Positions 7,666 to 30,051 of a stretch of DNA of 30,051 nt are shown here, piece after piece. The notes under the pieces are model-generated. The model saw only the letters and a list, made by a program, of their open reading frames with translations, did not search any database and was not told the DNA's origin. A program made the position numbers and the translations under genes. This DNA is from a virus (Duplodnaviria; Caudoviricetes): IMG/VR virus record IMGVR_UViG_3300011337_000119, positions 1 through 30,051 of that record; one strand, 5' to 3'. Numbering within the stretch: the first letter of the stretch is position 1; each line of letters opens with the position of its first letter.

Positions 7666-7908
7666 TTAATCGTTTGAGTAGTTTTCAAATTGTTCGCACC
7701 AAGTATCCATTGGTACAAAAGGAATTTGTTTAAAATTATGTTTAGGTTGCTCTAATAAATGTGGCATATTATCACGCTTAAAAGCCTTTAATAATTCCTT
7801 TGCACTATTGACTTTCTCATAGGCTTCTTTGGTGTTTTTTTGCTCATAAATACCTTGCCAAAACCAAACATTAGTTCTTAAACTTTCTAATTTGTGATAG
7901 ATGTTCAT
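7666..7908 (-). CDS. Hypothetical protein
   Basis: 80-aa ORF with ATGA overlap on bet. Confidence 0.7.
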   Translation of the reverse strand: MNIYHKLESLRTNVWFWQGIYEQKNTKEAYEKVNSAKELLKAFKRDNMPHLLEQPKHNFKQIPFVPMDTWCEQFENYSND

Positions 7909-8621
7909 AGTGTTTCTTTTTTCTTGGTAAATAATTTAGTTACATCTTTAGTTGCAAGTTCCTGATTCAAGGTATAAAGTTCAGCTAATTCGTTTGTGCT
8001 TATGCATAGATCAATAGCTAACTCTAAATCTTCAAGATTATCGTGCGTTTTAATATAGGCTGGTTTGTCATCGCTTTGTGCCATTTCATCGCCTGTGTAA
8101 AGTCCGCTTAAATCTTGTGGGTAAGCCTTTCTTAAAGCTAATGCCTCTGCAACTTTAGAAAGCATTGTATGTGGCATCTTCGCCCATAAACCCATTGGTT
8201 TACCATCGTTTGTTCTTTGGCAGTATTCATCCCAATAAGCTATTCCAACTGCTGCTTCATACCTTGAATCTCCGTGAAATCTAAATACTGATACTTTACA
8301 AGAAATTAATTTTCCATCTTGTTCTACAAAGATTGGTTCGCTTTGTCCACCATAGTTTCCGCTACGTTCTGCGATTACTCGGAAGCCGTCAATACTTGTT
8401 TGGATAGTCATTTTTTTAGTCCATCCGTTTTGTGTTTTAACGTTCCTGTGGATGCAATAAATCTGCCTTGATAACGCATCGAGTCCTGTGCGTTGTGCTT
8501 GGTAAAGAAATAGCTTTAGTTCATCAACTGTTGCTTCTGGAGCAATCTGCGATTTTACTAACTCTACTTGGTCTTTCGTGTACGAAAGTTGTGGCTTTTT
8601 AGCCAGTTGTTGTTCGTTCAT
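7905..8621 (-). CDS. bet: Bet/RecT-family single-strand annealing recombinase
   Basis: ELKLFLYQAQRTGLDALSRQIY, SIDGFRVIAER, WAKMPHTMLSKVAEALALRKAYP. Confidence 0.92.
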   Translation of the reverse strand: MNEQQLAKKPQLSYTKDQVELVKSQIAPEATVDELKLFLYQAQRTGLDALSRQIYCIHRNVKTQNGWTKKMTIQTSIDGFRVIAERSGNYGGQSEPIFVEQDGKLISCKVSVFRFHGDSRYEAAVGIAYWDEYCQRTNDGKPMGLWAKMPHTMLSKVAEALALRKAYPQDLSGLYTGDEMAQSDDKPAYIKTHDNLEDLELAIDLCISTNELAELYTLNQELATKDVTKLFTKKKETL

Positions 8622-8640
8622 ATTGGTTGGTTTTAGAGTT

Positions 8641-8672
8641 TAAAATTAAGTACTTTGGTGTTAATAACCAAA
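8641..8672 (-). promoter_or_regulatory. Promoter for bet (TTTG-N20-TAATTTTA)
   Basis: -33 TTTG at 8669..8672 and a -7 variant at 8641..8648. Confidence 0.5.
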
Positions 8673-9110
8673 TTAAACAAGCACATTTAAGTTGAAAACG
8701 TCCTTTTTTATGGTATCATCGAACTTATTTGACAATTGTCCTTTGATTTTTGAGATTGAGTGTAAAACTGTGGTTCTATCCCTATTAAAGATTTGTGCTA
8801 TTTCCTCGCCATTTAAGTTGGTCTTTTCTTTAGTCAAATACATTGTCATTTGCCTTGCCAAAGTAACTTCTTCGCCTCTATATTTTGACATTAATTGTCC
8901 GTACTTAATCTGGTAGTAATTGCACACTTTTTCGGCTATTTCTATTGCGTACTCCTTTTGTTGTTCTTTGTCCATTCTTATTGTTTTTATGTTTAAATGT
9001 TTATCTAATAGGTCTTTTAACCTGTTTATTTCTTTTTTAAGTTCTTTGTTCTTATCTCGCAAAACCTCTATTTCAAGTTCTGCCATATAGGTTTTATGTA
9101 CTTCTCTCAT
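8673..9110 (-). CDS. Coiled-coil plus DnaA C-terminal-like HTH protein
   Basis: VCNYYQI...LMSKYR...ARQMTMYL...IAQIFNRDRTTVLHSISKI resembles DnaA domain IV. Confidence 0.85.
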   Translation of the reverse strand: MREVHKTYMAELEIEVLRDKNKELKKEINRLKDLLDKHLNIKTIRMDKEQQKEYAIEIAEKVCNYYQIKYGQLMSKYRGEEVTLARQMTMYLTKEKTNLNGEEIAQIFNRDRTTVLHSISKIKGQLSNKFDDTIKKDVFNLNVLV

Positions 9111-9406
9111 TAGAAATGTAAAAGGTTAATTGGGAGCATAAAGTCCTCCGTTAATGTATAAAGGTCAAGGATTAGAAAATGGTAGCTTTTAAGGATTCGC
9201 TTTTGCACATCGTTCATTCGTGCAATCTTAATCAATAAATCTTCCTCGCTAATCATTGTTCTTGTGTCATCCAATCCTCGCCTCCATTCCGCAAGATCAG
9301 CCTCAAATAGATTTTGCCTTCCTTGTGCTTCCTTTAGTAACTGGAGTAGCATTGTTGCTCTTTGGTGCAACTTTAGTTGTTTCGCTTGATAGATTAGTTT
9401 GCTCAT
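9110..9406 (-). CDS. Hypothetical helical protein
   Basis: 98-aa ORF coupled to the next gene. Confidence 0.65.
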   Translation of the reverse strand: MSKLIYQAKQLKLHQRATMLLQLLKEAQGRQNLFEADLAEWRRGLDDTRTMISEEDLLIKIARMNDVQKRILKSYHFLILDLYTLTEDFMLPINLLHF

Positions 9407-9521
9407 ATTGTTTTAGGATTTTGTAAACCAACTTACTAAGGGTTATGCCTTTGGAGTCGGCTTCGGTTTGTAGGTTAGTCTTGATTTGGTTGGTTACTAA
9501 TGTCGTTATCAGGGTTTTCAT
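9303..9521 (-). CDS. Ribbon-helix-helix-like regulator
   Basis: N-terminal strand then LQTEADSKGITLSKLVYKIL; C-terminal tail overlaps the next ORF. Confidence 0.55.
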   Translation of the reverse strand: MKTLITTLVTNQIKTNLQTEADSKGITLSKLVYKILKQYEQTNLSSETTKVAPKSNNATPVTKGSTRKAKSI

Positions 9522-9642
9522 AAATTGATTTAATACCTCTTGCTAAGTTTCTACAGGCTTCAACTGTTTCTCTTACATAGCCATTTGGCATATTAATTAA
9601 TTGGTTTTCTAATGTCTTAATGTAAATGTTAATTGGTGTCAT
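9475..9642 (-). CDS. Hypothetical protein (start revised to MTPINIY)
   Basis: ATG 1 nt after the stop of 9644..9772. Confidence 0.6.
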   Translation of the reverse strand: MTPINIYIKTLENQLINMPNGYVRETVEACRNLARGIKSIYENPDNDISNQPNQD

Positions 9643-9643
9643 A

Positions 9644-9772
9644 CTAAATGTTTTGAAGGATTGCGGTAATAATAAATGCGATGCATACAATGATAAATGC
9701 ATACATAGGTTTGATTGAATCGGCTTGGTAGCGTTCGTTTGCTTTTTGTTGTGGTGTTTTTAACTTGTTCAT
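9644..9772 (-). CDS. 42-aa protein with C-terminal TM helix (not in ORF track)
   Basis: MNKLKTPQQKANERYQADSIKPMYAFIIVCIAFIITAILQNI. Confidence 0.65.
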   Translation of the reverse strand: MNKLKTPQQKANERYQADSIKPMYAFIIVCIAFIITAILQNI

Positions 9773-9924
9773 ATTGGTTTTATTTGATATCCTAAAGAAA
9801 TATATTTTTCTAACTTAAATACTAATAATGATTTGTCAAATTCATTAAATTGATTAACTGGAAGTAAAATAGTAATCCAGTCAGTAGTTGTACCTTCTTT
9901 GTAAATTTTAAATGCTTTTTTCAT
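9769..9924 (-). CDS. 51-aa hypothetical protein, first gene of the early operon (not in ORF track)
   Basis: MKKAFKIYKEGTTTDWITILLPVNQFNEFDKSLLVFKLEKYISLGYQIKPI; ATGA overlap; promoter just upstream. Confidence 0.65.
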   Translation of the reverse strand: MKKAFKIYKEGTTTDWITILLPVNQFNEFDKSLLVFKLEKYISLGYQIKPI

Positions 9925-9944
9925 ATTGCTTTTGGTTTAGAACT

Positions 9945-9952
9945 CAAAGATA
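9945..9952 (-). promoter_or_regulatory. Early promoter -7 element TATCTTTG
   Basis: Consensus TAnnTTTG 20 nt upstream of ATG 9924; TTTG at 9975..9978. Confidence 0.65.
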
Positions 9953-10004
9953 GGGCAAAACCTTATAACTTTATCAAACAAGGCAATTATTTTCTAAAAT
10001 TGTG

Positions 10005-10289
10005 ATGAACGGCAAATAATATGGTATGAATGGTATAATTTGACTTATATGGGACTAATATGTATCAAAAAGTGCGTTTTTTGACACATTATTGTACGAA
10101 TAAGTGACACAATTTTACGTTTATATGCATGAAATATTAGAAAAATTCATGCAGTCTTATATGACTAGTTAGATAAGACTATCTGACTAGTTATTATAAT
10201 TTAGGTACAACAAGAGTTTATAATTTTGGTAAAAGTAGTAGTTTTACTACCTTTTATGAGCGATAAATGAACTTTTTATGAGCGATAAA
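10005..10289. repeat. Array of abutting, mutually unrelated direct- and inverted-repeat sites
   Basis: For example TTTTATGAGCGATAAA x2, TAT[A/C]TGACTAGTTA x2, TTATAATTT[A/T]GGTA x2, TGCATGAA-N12-TTCATGCA. Confidence 0.75.
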
Positions 10290-10350
10290 AAACCCCTAAC
10301 CACATTGACGTTATGATTAGGGGTAGAACCTTGTTCAGTTGTTTTTCAGA
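10287..10350 (-). ncRNA. Candidate small RNA 1
   Basis: TTTG(10382..10385)-N20-TAATTTTA(10354..10361) promoter; 12-bp hairpin plus T6 terminator; no ORF. Confidence 0.5.
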
Positions 10351-10386
10351 ATGTAAAATTAATAACTTTAAATAATACTAACAAAT

Positions 10387-10442
10387 AAAAAACCCCCACT
10401 ATGGAAATAGCGAGGGTTAAACCTAAGTTAAACCAATATGAA
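10387..10442 (-). ncRNA. Candidate small RNA 2, antisense to early-gene start codons
   Basis: TATCTTTG at 10446..10453; 5' seed TTCATATTGGTTT; 10-bp hairpin plus T6. Confidence 0.65.
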
Positions 10443-10456
10443 AGCCAAAGATATAT

Positions 10457-10522
10457 AAAAAAAGCAACTTTTTATGGTTGCTTTGTGTGTAACGTTCTGG
10501 TAGCTATCTCCAAAACTCTACG
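10457..10522 (-). ncRNA. Candidate small RNA 3
   Basis: TATATTTG at 10526..10533; GCAAC/GTTGC hairpin plus T7; no ORF. Confidence 0.55.
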
Positions 10523-10536
10523 ATGCAAATATATAT

Positions 10537-10564
10537 AAAAAACCCCACCTTTTTAGGGGTGAGG
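10537..10564 (-). terminator. Intrinsic terminator ending the late/lysis operon
   Basis: CCTCACC/GGTGGGG stem plus T6, 16 nt after the stop at 10581. Confidence 0.8.
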
Positions 10565-10580
10565 AACTATGAACGAACAA

Positions 10581-10850
10581 CTATTTAGAACCATCTTGTA
10601 ATGGTGTATCATTAGAATTATCAACCCTTCTGTAACCTTCTTTCCAGAGAATCTTACATAAAGTTACGCTTTTATCAATAATTGCATTTTCATCGTCCAT
10701 TGGGTTAAGTATATGTAAACACTCGTGCAATAGAATTTCAAGGTGCTTCTTGCCCTTTAAACGAGAATCTATTATGACAATACCATCACTCTCGGCAATG
10801 CCGTGTGCTTGTTCTCTGCCAAGTTTACGATATTCTATTTTAATCTTCAT
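10581..10850 (-). CDS. Small HExxH metallopeptidase-like protein
   Basis: IIIDSRL...EILLHECLH. Confidence 0.7.
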   Translation of the reverse strand: MKIKIEYRKLGREQAHGIAESDGIVIIDSRLKGKKHLEILLHECLHILNPMDDENAIIDKSVTLCKILWKEGYRRVDNSNDTPLQDGSK

Positions 10851-11031
10851 CTTTTAATAAAGCTAAATCTGGTCTATCAACCTCTTTAAATATAAGTTTC
10901 TCGCCACCTCTGATCTTACCTAATGTGGTTTTAATCTCTTGTTCTAAGTTGTGCAATTCAATTAGTTTAGCAACCAACCATTGTTCTTGTTGTAGTGAGT
11001 TCAATTTTGCAAAGTTTTTAGGGTATCTCAT
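10840..11031 (-). CDS. Hypothetical protein (start revised to MRYPKNF)
   Basis: ATG 1 nt after the stop of 11033..12073. Confidence 0.65.
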   Translation of the reverse strand: MRYPKNFAKLNSLQQEQWLVAKLIELHNLEQEIKTTLGKIRGGEKLIFKEVDRPDLALLKDED

Positions 11032-11032
11032 A

Positions 11033-12073
11033 TTAGAAGATTTTATTTTTATAGATTCTTTTATTTTGAACCGAGTAATAACCTTCTTTATCTTTTTCCA
11101 ATATCGCAAATCCTTGTGAGTAATTATCAACGTGCTTACAATATTCAACGTTTGGATGCATCAAATGTCCAGTGGTCCAGCAAGTAAATACTTCTTCATC
11201 AAACTGATTCTTAGTTGTGTAAGATTGCACCTGATGAACGTGAGAAGCTATTGCGCTTTGCTTAACTCTATCGTATAAAGTCTTAGCTGGGTTTACACCG
11301 CTACCCCTTCTAAAGGTTGTATCTCCGTGAATGATTGGTAGTTTGCCGAACTTAACGTGATCTATGTTTTTAATCGGAATAATGTTAAAAGTATTTAGCA
11401 TTAATATTTCCTCAATCTCAAACTTGCCGTTTAACCCTAATAATTCAGGTGCTTTGGTTCGCATATACCTTTCATATCTAAATTCGTGGTTGGCATCTAA
11501 GTTGTAATAAATTGGTATTTGAGGAAATGATGCTCTTATAAATCCAAGCATTTCAATTATTGCCTCGTATTCTTCATCAAACTTTCTAACTCTTGGGTCT
11601 TTTTGGAAATCGCTTAATTGATAAAAGTCAACTAAATCGCCATTGATAAATAATGAATCTATCTTTTGTTCATTTAAGTATTTAAAACAAACATCAATTG
11701 CCTTTGGGTCGTGAAATGGTACTTGAAGATCACTTATAAATCCCATCTTTTTAATTGCCATCGGTAAACAATAAACAACTTTTTCCTCAACCCAAGTAGG
11801 CGGTTGCACAAAGTTTGATGCAGTACGTTTAAAATCTTCTATAAATTGTTGATTAACACCTTTTGTGCTTTTAGTTTGTCCTGTCTTACCCCTATAATAT
11901 CTAACTAAATATCTAACATTTTCGTGATTGTCAAAATGTGCGCTTTGCTCCTTCATAATCAAAGAAGCTAAAGTGTTAGACGGCATCCATTGAGGATATT
12001 TGGCTAAATAGTCCAAGACTATCTGACCACTCATTGTGGTTTTGCTTCCAGCCTTTTTTTTTGTTGTTGTCAT
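11033..12073 (-). CDS. Calcineurin-like metallophosphoesterase with N-terminal extension
   Basis: SDLQVPFHD, NGDLVDFY, ANHE, IHGD, SHVH motifs. Confidence 0.85.
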   Translation of the reverse strand: MTTTKKKAGSKTTMSGQIVLDYLAKYPQWMPSNTLASLIMKEQSAHFDNHENVRYLVRYYRGKTGQTKSTKGVNQQFIEDFKRTASNFVQPPTWVEEKVVYCLPMAIKKMGFISDLQVPFHDPKAIDVCFKYLNEQKIDSLFINGDLVDFYQLSDFQKDPRVRKFDEEYEAIIEMLGFIRASFPQIPIYYNLDANHEFRYERYMRTKAPELLGLNGKFEIEEILMLNTFNIIPIKNIDHVKFGKLPIIHGDTTFRRGSGVNPAKTLYDRVKQSAIASHVHQVQSYTTKNQFDEEVFTCWTTGHLMHPNVEYCKHVDNYSQGFAILEKDKEGYYSVQNKRIYKNKIF

Positions 12074-28632: not shown

Positions 28633-30004
28633 TTGGTAATGTTAAAGGTTGGAAATTATCAGGTGGTTGTAAACTTGAAGGGATGTAAAGTTTTTCCATT
28701 TCGTTTTCGTCTATGTAAGGTGGAATCTCTAATCCCATTATATCCATCTTTTGCTTAGGTGCAATCCACCAAGCCTTATCTAACCATTCTACTTGCTCTG
28801 CTTTGTTAGCTTCTAATTCGCCATAAACACTTGCATCGAAGTCGACATAAATATCCGTTCCTCTATAACCCCAGTCAGAATGTAGCTTTCTATTTAAGTT
28901 ATCTCTAATACCTGTAAGCAAAGGAATAGCACAACGTAATGTCAATGCTTTCTCGCCTTCTCTTTGGTTGTTGTAAGTCTTATTGTCGCTATCGTTTAAA
29001 AGTTGCGCTGGTACTCCGTAAATATTACAAAGTGCTTTCATATCCCACTTCTCACTTTCAATGATGTCTAATTCAACAGGACTTAATCCGATTTGCTTCC
29101 AGTCTACTTTATAACCACTAACCGCAATTGAATTAAAGTTAGCAGAACCACCTTTCTCACTCACCGCCTTTTTAAGTGCTTGTGCTTGTTGTGTTCCACT
29201 AATAGGATCAAAGCGTTCATCATTCATAAAAAGAACTCCAGCTGGACCACCATTCTGGAAAGATGCAACCGCAGCAGTCTTCGCTTCGTTGGAACGAGTC
29301 AAGTTTTTCGCAGCAGCCATCAATGGAGATTGACCATATAGTTGATTCCCAGTTGTATTCCATTGTAAGTTTATGTATTTATCTTGTAGTACCTCTTGTT
29401 TAGTAAAGTTCCAAAGTGGACCATAGTTCAATTGGTAACCGCTAATAGTTGGAGGAAAGTTTTGAATGTCCGCTAAAACGTACATATATTGAGAAGGTAG
29501 AACGTACATCTCATAAGGTTTGCCGTTATTGTTACCACCTTCAATCATCTTTGCGTAAACGAAAGAGTTACCTGTGATTAACTTAAAAGTACACCAAGCC
29601 TCTACGAAATCGCCAAAGGTATCTTCTTCATTAGGATATTTCAACAACTCGTTTAATCTTGCATCACCTGTGTATAATTCAAATGCCTTCTTGTGTAGCT
29701 TCTCAACGTCCTTCCAGTTCTCAATCTTATCTGGTTGGCTCATTAACGCTTTATATTTCTTTGCTGATGTTTCATCAACTACTTTATAAACGTGGAATGG
29801 AGCAAGTTTTGCTTTATCCGCAATTAATTTAACGATTGAATAAACAATATCATTCGCTGCATAACCATCATTAACAAAGCTAATGTTATCGCCACCTTGC
29901 CAAGTTATTATCCCTTGTTGTATCGCAACTTGTCCGTTAAAAGGAATTTGTGGTAGTACAGTAGATAGTTTTTGTCTTTTACCAAAAAAGTCAAGTAATC
30001 CCAT
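28625..30004 (-). CDS. Portal protein, HK97 family
   Basis: LLKYPN, LITGNSF, YGQSPL, NGGPAGVL, IYGVP, TYNN. Confidence 0.95.
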   Translation of the reverse strand: MGLLDFFGKRQKLSTVLPQIPFNGQVAIQQGIITWQGGDNISFVNDGYAANDIVYSIVKLIADKAKLAPFHVYKVVDETSAKKYKALMSQPDKIENWKDVEKLHKKAFELYTGDARLNELLKYPNEEDTFGDFVEAWCTFKLITGNSFVYAKMIEGGNNNGKPYEMYVLPSQYMYVLADIQNFPPTISGYQLNYGPLWNFTKQEVLQDKYINLQWNTTGNQLYGQSPLMAAAKNLTRSNEAKTAAVASFQNGGPAGVLFMNDERFDPISGTQQAQALKKAVSEKGGSANFNSIAVSGYKVDWKQIGLSPVELDIIESEKWDMKALCNIYGVPAQLLNDSDNKTYNNQREGEKALTLRCAIPLLTGIRDNLNRKLHSDWGYRGTDIYVDFDASVYGELEANKAEQVEWLDKAWWIAPKQKMDIMGLEIPPYIDENEMEKLYIPSSLQPPDNFQPLTLPNE

Positions 30005-30051
30005 TATATATGAATTTAAAACAAAGTTAGTTATTTTATACTAAAAAACAG
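28813..30051. repeat. Terminal direct repeat, copy 2
   Basis: Colinear with 1..1239. Confidence 0.95.

Follow-up and report, generated by a model that had tools for sequence, protein, structure and literature searches.

A predicted small RNA antisense to tagged early start codons in a Bacteroidota phage and its relatives

Genome layout and the predicted small RNA

The window, that is, the whole stretch of DNA analysed here (30,051 nt), comprises the entire record, and its ends repeat over 1239 nt with 64 differences, so that the true genome measures about 28.8 kb; this terminal repeat (1-1239 / 28813-30051) is probably an assembly overlap of mixed strains. The genome has a GC content of 32% and carries every convincing gene on the minus strand. 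An early and replication module starts at 9924 and includes RecT/Bet, SSB, a replication initiator and NinG, and the remainder consists of the terminase, head, tail and lysis genes of a Bacteroidota-type siphophage, the last of which ends at 10581. The nearest relatives of the capsid are found in Cellulophaga phi10:1 and Flavobacterium 11b, and those of the terminase in Bacteroides and Flavobacterium phages. Together with homologous contigs in Bacteroidota MAGs of the GTDB collection (three, all short, with no integrated copy seen there), these affinities point to a Bacteroidota bacterium as the host. Among the 49 ORFs of the window, many of which have no family, we found no integrase or CI-like repressor. 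A 72-aa ORF (9303-9521, minus strand) is a possible transcriptional regulator, its counterpart in a group of relatives (group B, see below) weakly matching an Arc-like repressor.

Between the late genes and the early module lies a predicted small RNA, unit B, whose surroundings comprise the following features:

10543-10583, minus: unit A, a second anti-AUG segment with terminator, at the 3' end of the late operon
10446-10453, minus: sigma-A -7 box TATCTTTG of the small-RNA promoter, of host (Bacteroidota) type
~10441-10387, minus: unit B, predicted RNA of ~55 nt, its 5' end placed by promoter spacing
10433-10441, minus: conserved 9-nt seed UCAUAUUGG, antisense to CCAAU-AUG-A
10418-10423, minus: second pairing segment GGUUUA, antisense to the (U)AAACC motif
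10387-10418, minus: intrinsic terminator (hairpin and U tract), stem varying with compensation
9945-9952, minus: sigma-A -7 box of the early operon promoter, kept in relatives
9769-9924, minus: first early ORF, 51 aa, start codon at 9924
9644-9772, minus: conserved 42-aa early ORF, start overlapping the stop codon of the preceding ORF
9110-9406, minus: 98-aa ORF of the early region
7905-8621, minus: bet/RecT gene, start codon at 8621

Unit B is laid out as a promoter, 24 unpaired bases and then an intrinsic terminator, and its computed fold is the terminator hairpin alone (MFE -16.2 kcal/mol, z -3.4) with an unpaired 5' part, the unpaired probability of the seed being 0.80-0.98. Since the Bacteroidota sigma-A box TAnnTTTG is described at -12 to -5 (PMC6847099, PMC9723704), the predicted +1 falls at about 10441, and the 13-nt seed quoted in an earlier sequence-only reading probably begins with one or two U's that are not transcribed. 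That seed is retained here in part: its first 9 nt from the predicted +1 (UCAUAUUGG) are conserved, its tail is unconserved and 10443-10442 precede the predicted +1. The conserved portion is delimited in this way because position +10 is A in 64/74 loci of group A, which consists of the window and its close relatives; the window's final UUU is a minority allele that lengthens its match. Position -1 is T in 73 of these 74 loci, so transcription may start one base earlier, and a +1 two bases further in, at 10439, would leave a 7-nt seed with the AUG partly uncovered.

On sequence evidence, unit B has the attributes of a trans-encoded base-pairing sRNA, namely its own promoter, an intrinsic terminator, no coding role and a conserved unpaired seed complementary to the translation-initiation regions of distant genes. 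The RNA and its targets all lie on the minus strand without overlap, the RNA being encoded 0.5-1.8 kb from the targets. Its promoter looks constitutive, and the sequence alone therefore leaves timing unexplained. Among contigs from RNA runs (at least 21 runs, shares of 0.21 or less), those of the four runs examined cover early as well as late genes and could derive from DNA.

Several other elements are found nearby. An extra promoter-hairpin-terminator unit with a duplicated promoter lies between units A and B (10533-10456, minus; fold z -5.1) and has no clear start-codon target, and a further terminator hairpin with only an imperfect promoter lies at 10350-10285 (minus; hairpin 10324-10292). 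Neither has a 16-mer in common with any of the 73 group-A relatives, and the contig of one relative skips 10450-10531; both are, judged by this comparison, private insertions. Positions 10040-10290 hold several AT-rich inverted repeats in succession, together with a short direct repeat; in relatives, the same hypervariable spacer contains palindromic blocks of this kind in reshuffled subsets. A motif around CCGTTCATCAC (10005-10018, minus), some 60 nt upstream of the early promoter, is a possible DNA site; the CCGTTCATCAC motif is kept in 72/74 group-A loci and in 9/26 loci without unit B, and is not kept in groups B-G.

Start-codon matches and predicted targets

The sequence-only reading had placed matches to the 5' end of the RNA across three early start codons, and all three were found exactly there, each covering the ATG of a minus-strand gene (8621, 9772 and 9924). 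Positions 10442-10430 equal 9768-9780 (13/13), 10442-10431 equal 8617-8628 (12/12), and 9919-9932, TTTCATATTGcTTT, agrees at 13/14. The initiation context AACCAAUAUGAA, which had been described as shared by the three genes, holds for two of them; the first early gene has AAGCAAUAUGAA.

These matches are better than chance against a dinucleotide-shuffled background, in which 0/100 shuffles reach the observed counts: the seed 9-mer occurs three times in the window against 0.33 expected, and the 12-mer with one mismatch four times against 0.48. We also applied a start-aware null, in which the columns of 43 start regions were shuffled 20,000 times with start-region composition kept, and obtained two exact sites against 0.11 (p=0.004) and five sites within one mismatch against 1.8 (p=0.013). 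The first of these values bears on the reading that the tags, as we call the matched start-codon sequences, are mere strong A-rich initiation signals or recombination homologies and that their antisense copy arose by chance or as a functionless inverted duplicate, a reading to which the AT-rich genome, the generality of A-rich start regions in Bacteroidota (PMC6847099) and the swapping of first early genes as cassettes with a common leader would lend some plausibility. We return to it below with the evidence from relatives.

Targets were ranked by pairing only the single-stranded part of the RNA with the 49 start regions of the window, because the full-length RNA in RNAduplex, which ignores the hairpin, ranks spurious sites. 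The highest-ranking targets were as follows:

8618-8642, minus: target 1, start region of bet/RecT; 1st of 49, -17.4 kcal/mol (cofold -18.8)
9769-9780, minus: target 2, start region of the 42-aa early ORF; 2nd of 49, -15.0 kcal/mol
9921-9939, minus: target 3, leader and start codon of the first early ORF; 3rd of 49, -13.7 kcal/mol, bipartite duplex
9403-9411, minus: possible weaker fourth target, start of the 98-aa ORF; one mismatch, 7th of 49, -10.4 kcal/mol

The GGUUUA segment, which the sequence-only reading omitted, as it did unit A at 10583-10543, takes part in the duplexes predicted for bet and for the first early gene, and the (U)AAACC motif that it faces is located 10-20 nt upstream of early start codons. 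In a genome-wide window scan, sites in coding regions reached duplex energies of -15 to -16.4, equal to those of targets 2 and 3.

The RNA might instead activate or stabilise these leaders, or find its real targets among host mRNAs, and phage sRNAs are capable of both (PreS, 10.1101/2024.10.31.621285). The target leaders are computed to be unstructured from the outset, so there is no fold to open, and the AUG itself lies within the duplex. As for the host, three Bacteroidota MAGs contain 7, 6 and 7 copies of the 11-mer and 2, 2 and 8 of the reversed control; the 11-mer is rare in those genomes of 1.6-5.7 Mb, which may not be those of hosts, and the seed tracks the phage's own genes. We consider activation or host targeting scarcely likely.

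Conservation and seed/tag covariation among relatives

Three scans of viral contigs yielded 239 loci, 143 of them, the window included, distinct over the 200 nt past the last late gene. Unit B was present in 117 of the 143 and absent from 26, so that some relatives evidently do without it. Grouped by their RNA sequence, the loci fall into types A (74), B (21), D (11), C (6), E (2), F (2) and G (1). Group A (74 loci) has exchanged first genes and, upstream of the 42-aa gene, a spacer that measures anything from ~230 to 950 nt, in which unit B is the one constant element. Its six promoter consensus bases are invariant (74/74) and positions -4 to -2 are variable; the seed core from +2 to +9 is kept in 72/74 loci, the remaining two having a seed two bases further in. 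GGUUUA is invariant in the 16/16 aligned group-A units, and GGUU is retained in most other groups. In the terminator stem, 11 cells are changed on both sides against 4.8 in shuffles (0/500; 16 chosen rows, hand-set stem). These pairs were counted on a hand-set stem because RNAalifold, applied to the 16-row alignment, gave only a weak consensus, owing to hairpins of different length. The unit is conserved across phages whose marker protein is down to 63% identical.

The first early genes (9924-9644 in the window, and their counterparts in relatives) are non-homologous swapped cassettes with a common AAACC...ATG leader, which may have recombination homology as an added role. In group A, just 8/23 distinct first-gene starts carry the perfect tag.

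A functional element on the opposite strand, in which the inverted copy is the start signal of a 6-codon mini-ORF, is in our view extremely improbable. Six codons are indeed found in 65/69 group-A and 19/21 group-B loci where readable; the stop codon is, however, part of the promoter, the length varies in groups C, E, F and G, 9/11 group-D loci have no ATG, and a promoter for that strand lies within 250 nt in only 3/95 loci.

Seed/target covariation in related phages, which the sequence-only reading had proposed as a check, was examined here, and seeds and tags were found to change together across groups. The pairs, with the share of distinct early and late starts bearing the tag, are listed below:

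Group A: seed UCAUAUUGG, tag CCAAT-ATGA; 80/281 early vs 2/391 late starts, 1/47 in relatives without the unit
Group B: seed UCAUAG..ACUAAUGG, tag AACCATTAGTT-ATGA or AGTCT-ATGA; 11/109 early vs 0/125 late starts, 0/47 in relatives without the unit
Group C: seed UUCAUAGC, tag GCT-ATGAA; 10/45 early vs 0/62 late starts, 0/47 in relatives without the unit
Group D: seed AUACUAAUGG, tag CCA(A/T)TAGT-ATG or CCATAGT-ATG; 14/59 early vs 1/68 late starts, 0/47 in relatives without the unit
Group G: seed UUGCAUAG plus AAAGGUUU, tag AAACCTTTACT-ATGCAA

The gene after the DnaA-type HTH gene, which we call the annealing slot and which encodes RecT, ERF or a third family (phrog_19042) in the six examples scanned, is among the top three of ~20 start regions in 94/95 loci and ranks first in 61. 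In a permutation test on row- and column-centred matrices of the seven groups, computed for the annealing gene and for the best three targets, own-group pairing came first among 5040 permutations with both matrices, and among 720 when group E was left out. The groups and tags are post hoc definitions, E and G are represented by one locus each in the matrices, and an 89-column tree gives 10 group-label changes against a minimum of 7, meaning that the groups are not all single clades; the number of independent events is therefore about five or six. Exceptions off the diagonal are the group-D RNA on B targets (-13.1 vs -12.6) and the group-F RNA on B and E targets, and in 9/11 group-D loci the RNA has no anti-AUG triplet and covers the leader and AU only. 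A test of G-U versus A-C asymmetry lacked power. Matched changes also occur within one pair of loci that have two orthologous target genes in common (L219 and L305): an A/T change in the RNA has its counterpart in the 65-aa gene's leader, and the leader of the annealing-slot gene matches a three-base change.

In five loci (L155, L173, L181, L219 and L305), the RecT/ERF slot is occupied by a ~205-aa protein without Pfam match, assigned to phrog_19042 in the two scanned, which is a candidate further ssDNA-annealing family.

The covariation largely refutes a chance or functionless antisense copy already, and conservation down to 63% marker identity as well as the general lack of tags in relatives without the unit argue in the same direction. 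A search of viral contigs for the pattern of promoter, anti-AUG segment and GGTTT adds that, among the 119 matches listed, 37 are followed by a terminator, as compared with 0/123 for a control pattern with the anti-AUG letters rearranged. Taken with the start-aware null, these results make that reading highly improbable.

The motif could also be a DNA operator, a site for a phage protein such as a small Arc-like early protein, with the inverted copy as another site. An Arc-like candidate exists, albeit a weak one (phrog_582, E 0.003, for the group-B homologue), and the inverted copy overlaps the transcription start. The copy, however, lies antisense in every case, starting from the predicted +1, and a terminator with a compensated stem invariably comes after it. 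RNA and target separate the matching blocks by spacers of unequal length, as do group-B alleles that have one target in common, an arrangement compatible with looped RNA duplexes but not with a protein of fixed footprint. Groups B and D have near-identical Arc-like proteins, though their tags are also related. We judge an operator very unlikely.

Unit A provides a second anti-AUG segment. Positions 10581-10568 are antisense to bet at 8609-8622 over 14/14 (-20.8 kcal/mol, best of 49). A dedicated TATCTTTG promoter is present for this unit in groups C, F and G but is missing in groups A, B and D. Unit A ranks the annealing gene in its top two in 56/64 A, 0/14 B, 2/5 C and 0/8 D loci, so its targets differ by group. 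A C/G polymorphism of unit A was considered as a match to bet alleles and rejected, pairing being no better with matching alleles.

Beyond group A, the pattern search gave 20 of the 37 terminator-bearing matches listed (17 distinct), with targets evident, within the DNA covered, for some of them. The cultured Flavobacterium phage 11b (L243, NC_006356, 30326-30400) has a promoter, an anti-AUG segment and a terminator just before the erf operon promoter, and the best predicted targets of this unit are mixed, early and late. No convincing unit was seen in the cultured phages SJC01 and snusmum6-1. The spacer had no blastn match among cultured phages, the last late protein had no cultured homologue, and a homologue search with that protein gave no useful distant query. 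In Cellulophaga phage phi10:1 (first 50 of 53.7 kb; L364, 20044, minus), an opposite-strand promoter-terminator unit is a candidate, its unpaired part mirroring the AACTAAC-type leader of several genes (best -22.4 kcal/mol).

Proposed function and comparison with known systems

The proposal that one trans-acting RNA acts on several early start codons is supported by conservation from the predicted +1, by the unpaired seed and by covariation. The sequence-only reading had named matches no better than the shuffled background and a transcription start downstream of the seed as computable observations that would speak against it, and neither was found. The observed match is real and the RNA probably functional. 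With moderate confidence, we propose that unit B is a phage trans-acting antisense sRNA that dampens early translation during the lytic cycle. Within this proposal, RNA-RNA pairing at these sites is predicted as very probable, repression of the targets by the RNA appears likely, and for its main purpose we lean towards lytic dampening.

In the mechanism that we envisage, host sigma-A polymerase would make the ~55-nt RNA from the promoter to the terminator. As computation and covariation suggest, its unpaired 5' end would pair across the AUG, and its second segment with the A-rich leader, of the tagged mRNAs, which would be those of the first one to three early genes and of whichever ssDNA-annealing gene is present. 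Bacteroidetes are described as being without SD signals and as relying on adenines at -3, -6, -12 and -13 (PMC6847099). Because initiation proceeds without Shine-Dalgarno pairing, covering -20..+4 would, by analogy to the Bacteroides RNA GibS, block 30S loading. The RNA would build up after infection with genome copy number, and unit A would add a second anti-AUG RNA on the ends of late transcripts. As the RNA and late transcripts accumulate, the tagged genes would undergo a pulse of translation and then be turned down in the lytic cycle, which is the weakest step of the scheme.

The same antisense mechanism could have immunity as its main job. The RNA, accumulating in an infected or carrier cell, would silence the first early genes and the recombinase of a later-arriving relative with the same tag, and groups with other tags would escape, a heteroimmunity like that of P1/P7 c4. 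Seed and tag have diverged jointly into at least six types, a divergence that self-regulation alone does not need, and the promoter is independent of phage factors. Co-infection is likely, given how numerous and mosaic the close relatives are, and c4 offers a precedent (PMC12197685). Set against this are the absence of an integrase or CI-like repressor among the 49 ORFs and, in the GTDB collection, the occurrence of only three short contigs with no integrated copy seen. The near-invariant seed of group A (72/74) is, furthermore, unlike fast arms-race turnover, and unit A is tied to the late operon end in groups A, B and D. We regard immunity as an unlikely main job; to exclude relatives with the same tag would nevertheless be the chief alternative role, one compatible with lytic dampening.

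The phage sRNAs described so far have as their target, to our knowledge, either a single phage transcript that overlaps or neighbours them, or host mRNAs reached via Hfq. Unit B seems to group genes of its own phage into a regulon through a co-evolving start-codon tag, in a phylum without SD signals or obvious Hfq. Such a regulon would explain how small phages without an evident repressor time or cap the recombinase and the early genes. It could be the basis on which co-infecting relatives exclude one another, and its sRNA/tag pairs offer a natural, orthogonal means of controlling genes in Bacteroidota. We also advance, as a tentative conjecture that we rate slightly less likely than not, that many phages tag chosen early start codons and encode one or two matching RNAs, forming a protein-free, re-keyable translational regulon that acquired genes join by adopting the tag, and in which joint change of seed and tag creates immunity groups among non-integrating phages. 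If true, RecT, ERF or a third family in the same slot, along with unrelated first genes, would be adopters of the tag, and there would be a testable answer to what reads start-associated sequences, for instance those of Cluster K mycobacteriophages.

An Rfam scan of 8000-11500 gave hits of E 0.49 or worse (18-25 bits, far below gathering scores), none of them C4 (RF01695). Our search of the accessible main-text literature found no description of this RNA. Among the small antisense RNAs of phages, P22 sar is made from its own promoter and silences a phage regulatory mRNA. Lambda OOP is likewise a small phage RNA with its own promoter that silences a phage regulatory mRNA (10.1101/2024.10.31.621285). 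Both differ from unit B in being cis-encoded and fully complementary, with one target each, whereas unit B lies on the same strand as its targets without overlapping them and does not belong to this class. Lambda PreS and VP882 VpdS are, like unit B as proposed here, trans-acting phage sRNAs of the lytic cycle; they are described as Hfq-dependent, without a common start-codon tag, and PreS targets host mRNAs (10.1101/2024.10.31.621285).

A comparable layout is hinted at in print by the start-associated sequences (SAS) of Cluster K mycobacteriophages (PMC3203893). There, a phage-specific tag stands in one orientation just before the start codons of non-structural genes, and in four genomes a single reversed copy is unlinked to a gene start; the account leaves open whether an RNA or a protein reads it (PMC3203893). 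The SAS tag differs in being a 13-bp extended SD-like sequence on 11-19 genes of Actinobacteria phages, with no antisense RNA in the published description (PMC3203893), and the tag reported here, a different 9-nt motif that includes the ATG and occurs on three or four genes, is not one of its members.

The c4 RNA of P1/P7 pairs in trans near the ribosome-binding site, blocks translation and is the basis of heteroimmunity; unit B resembles it as a phage-encoded RNA that would pair in trans, sequence-specifically, with the phage's own mRNA (PMC12197685). Unlike unit B, c4 has one target transcript (ant), a structured fold with loop pairing, and temperate Proteobacteria phages as its setting. Unit B has a seed at a free, single-stranded 5' end, the terminator as its sole structure and several unrelated targets with a common tag; it lacks pairing sequences located in loops, and no antirepressor is annotated in the window. 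The likeness to GibS of Bacteroides thetaiotaomicron lies in the unstructured conserved 5' part, the two adjacent seed regions and the pairing at start codons, since the two-part unstructured 5' seed of GibS is reported to pair across start codons and to repress SD-less mRNAs in a genus for which no Hfq homologue is known, according to the same report (PMC7366714). GibS differs in being host-encoded and 145 nt long, with metabolic targets, a non-canonical promoter and no sequence relation shown. Judged by its sequence, and with unusually good support from the comparison of relatives, unit B is a probable case of trans-acting antisense control, which resembles c4 and GibS and belongs to neither.
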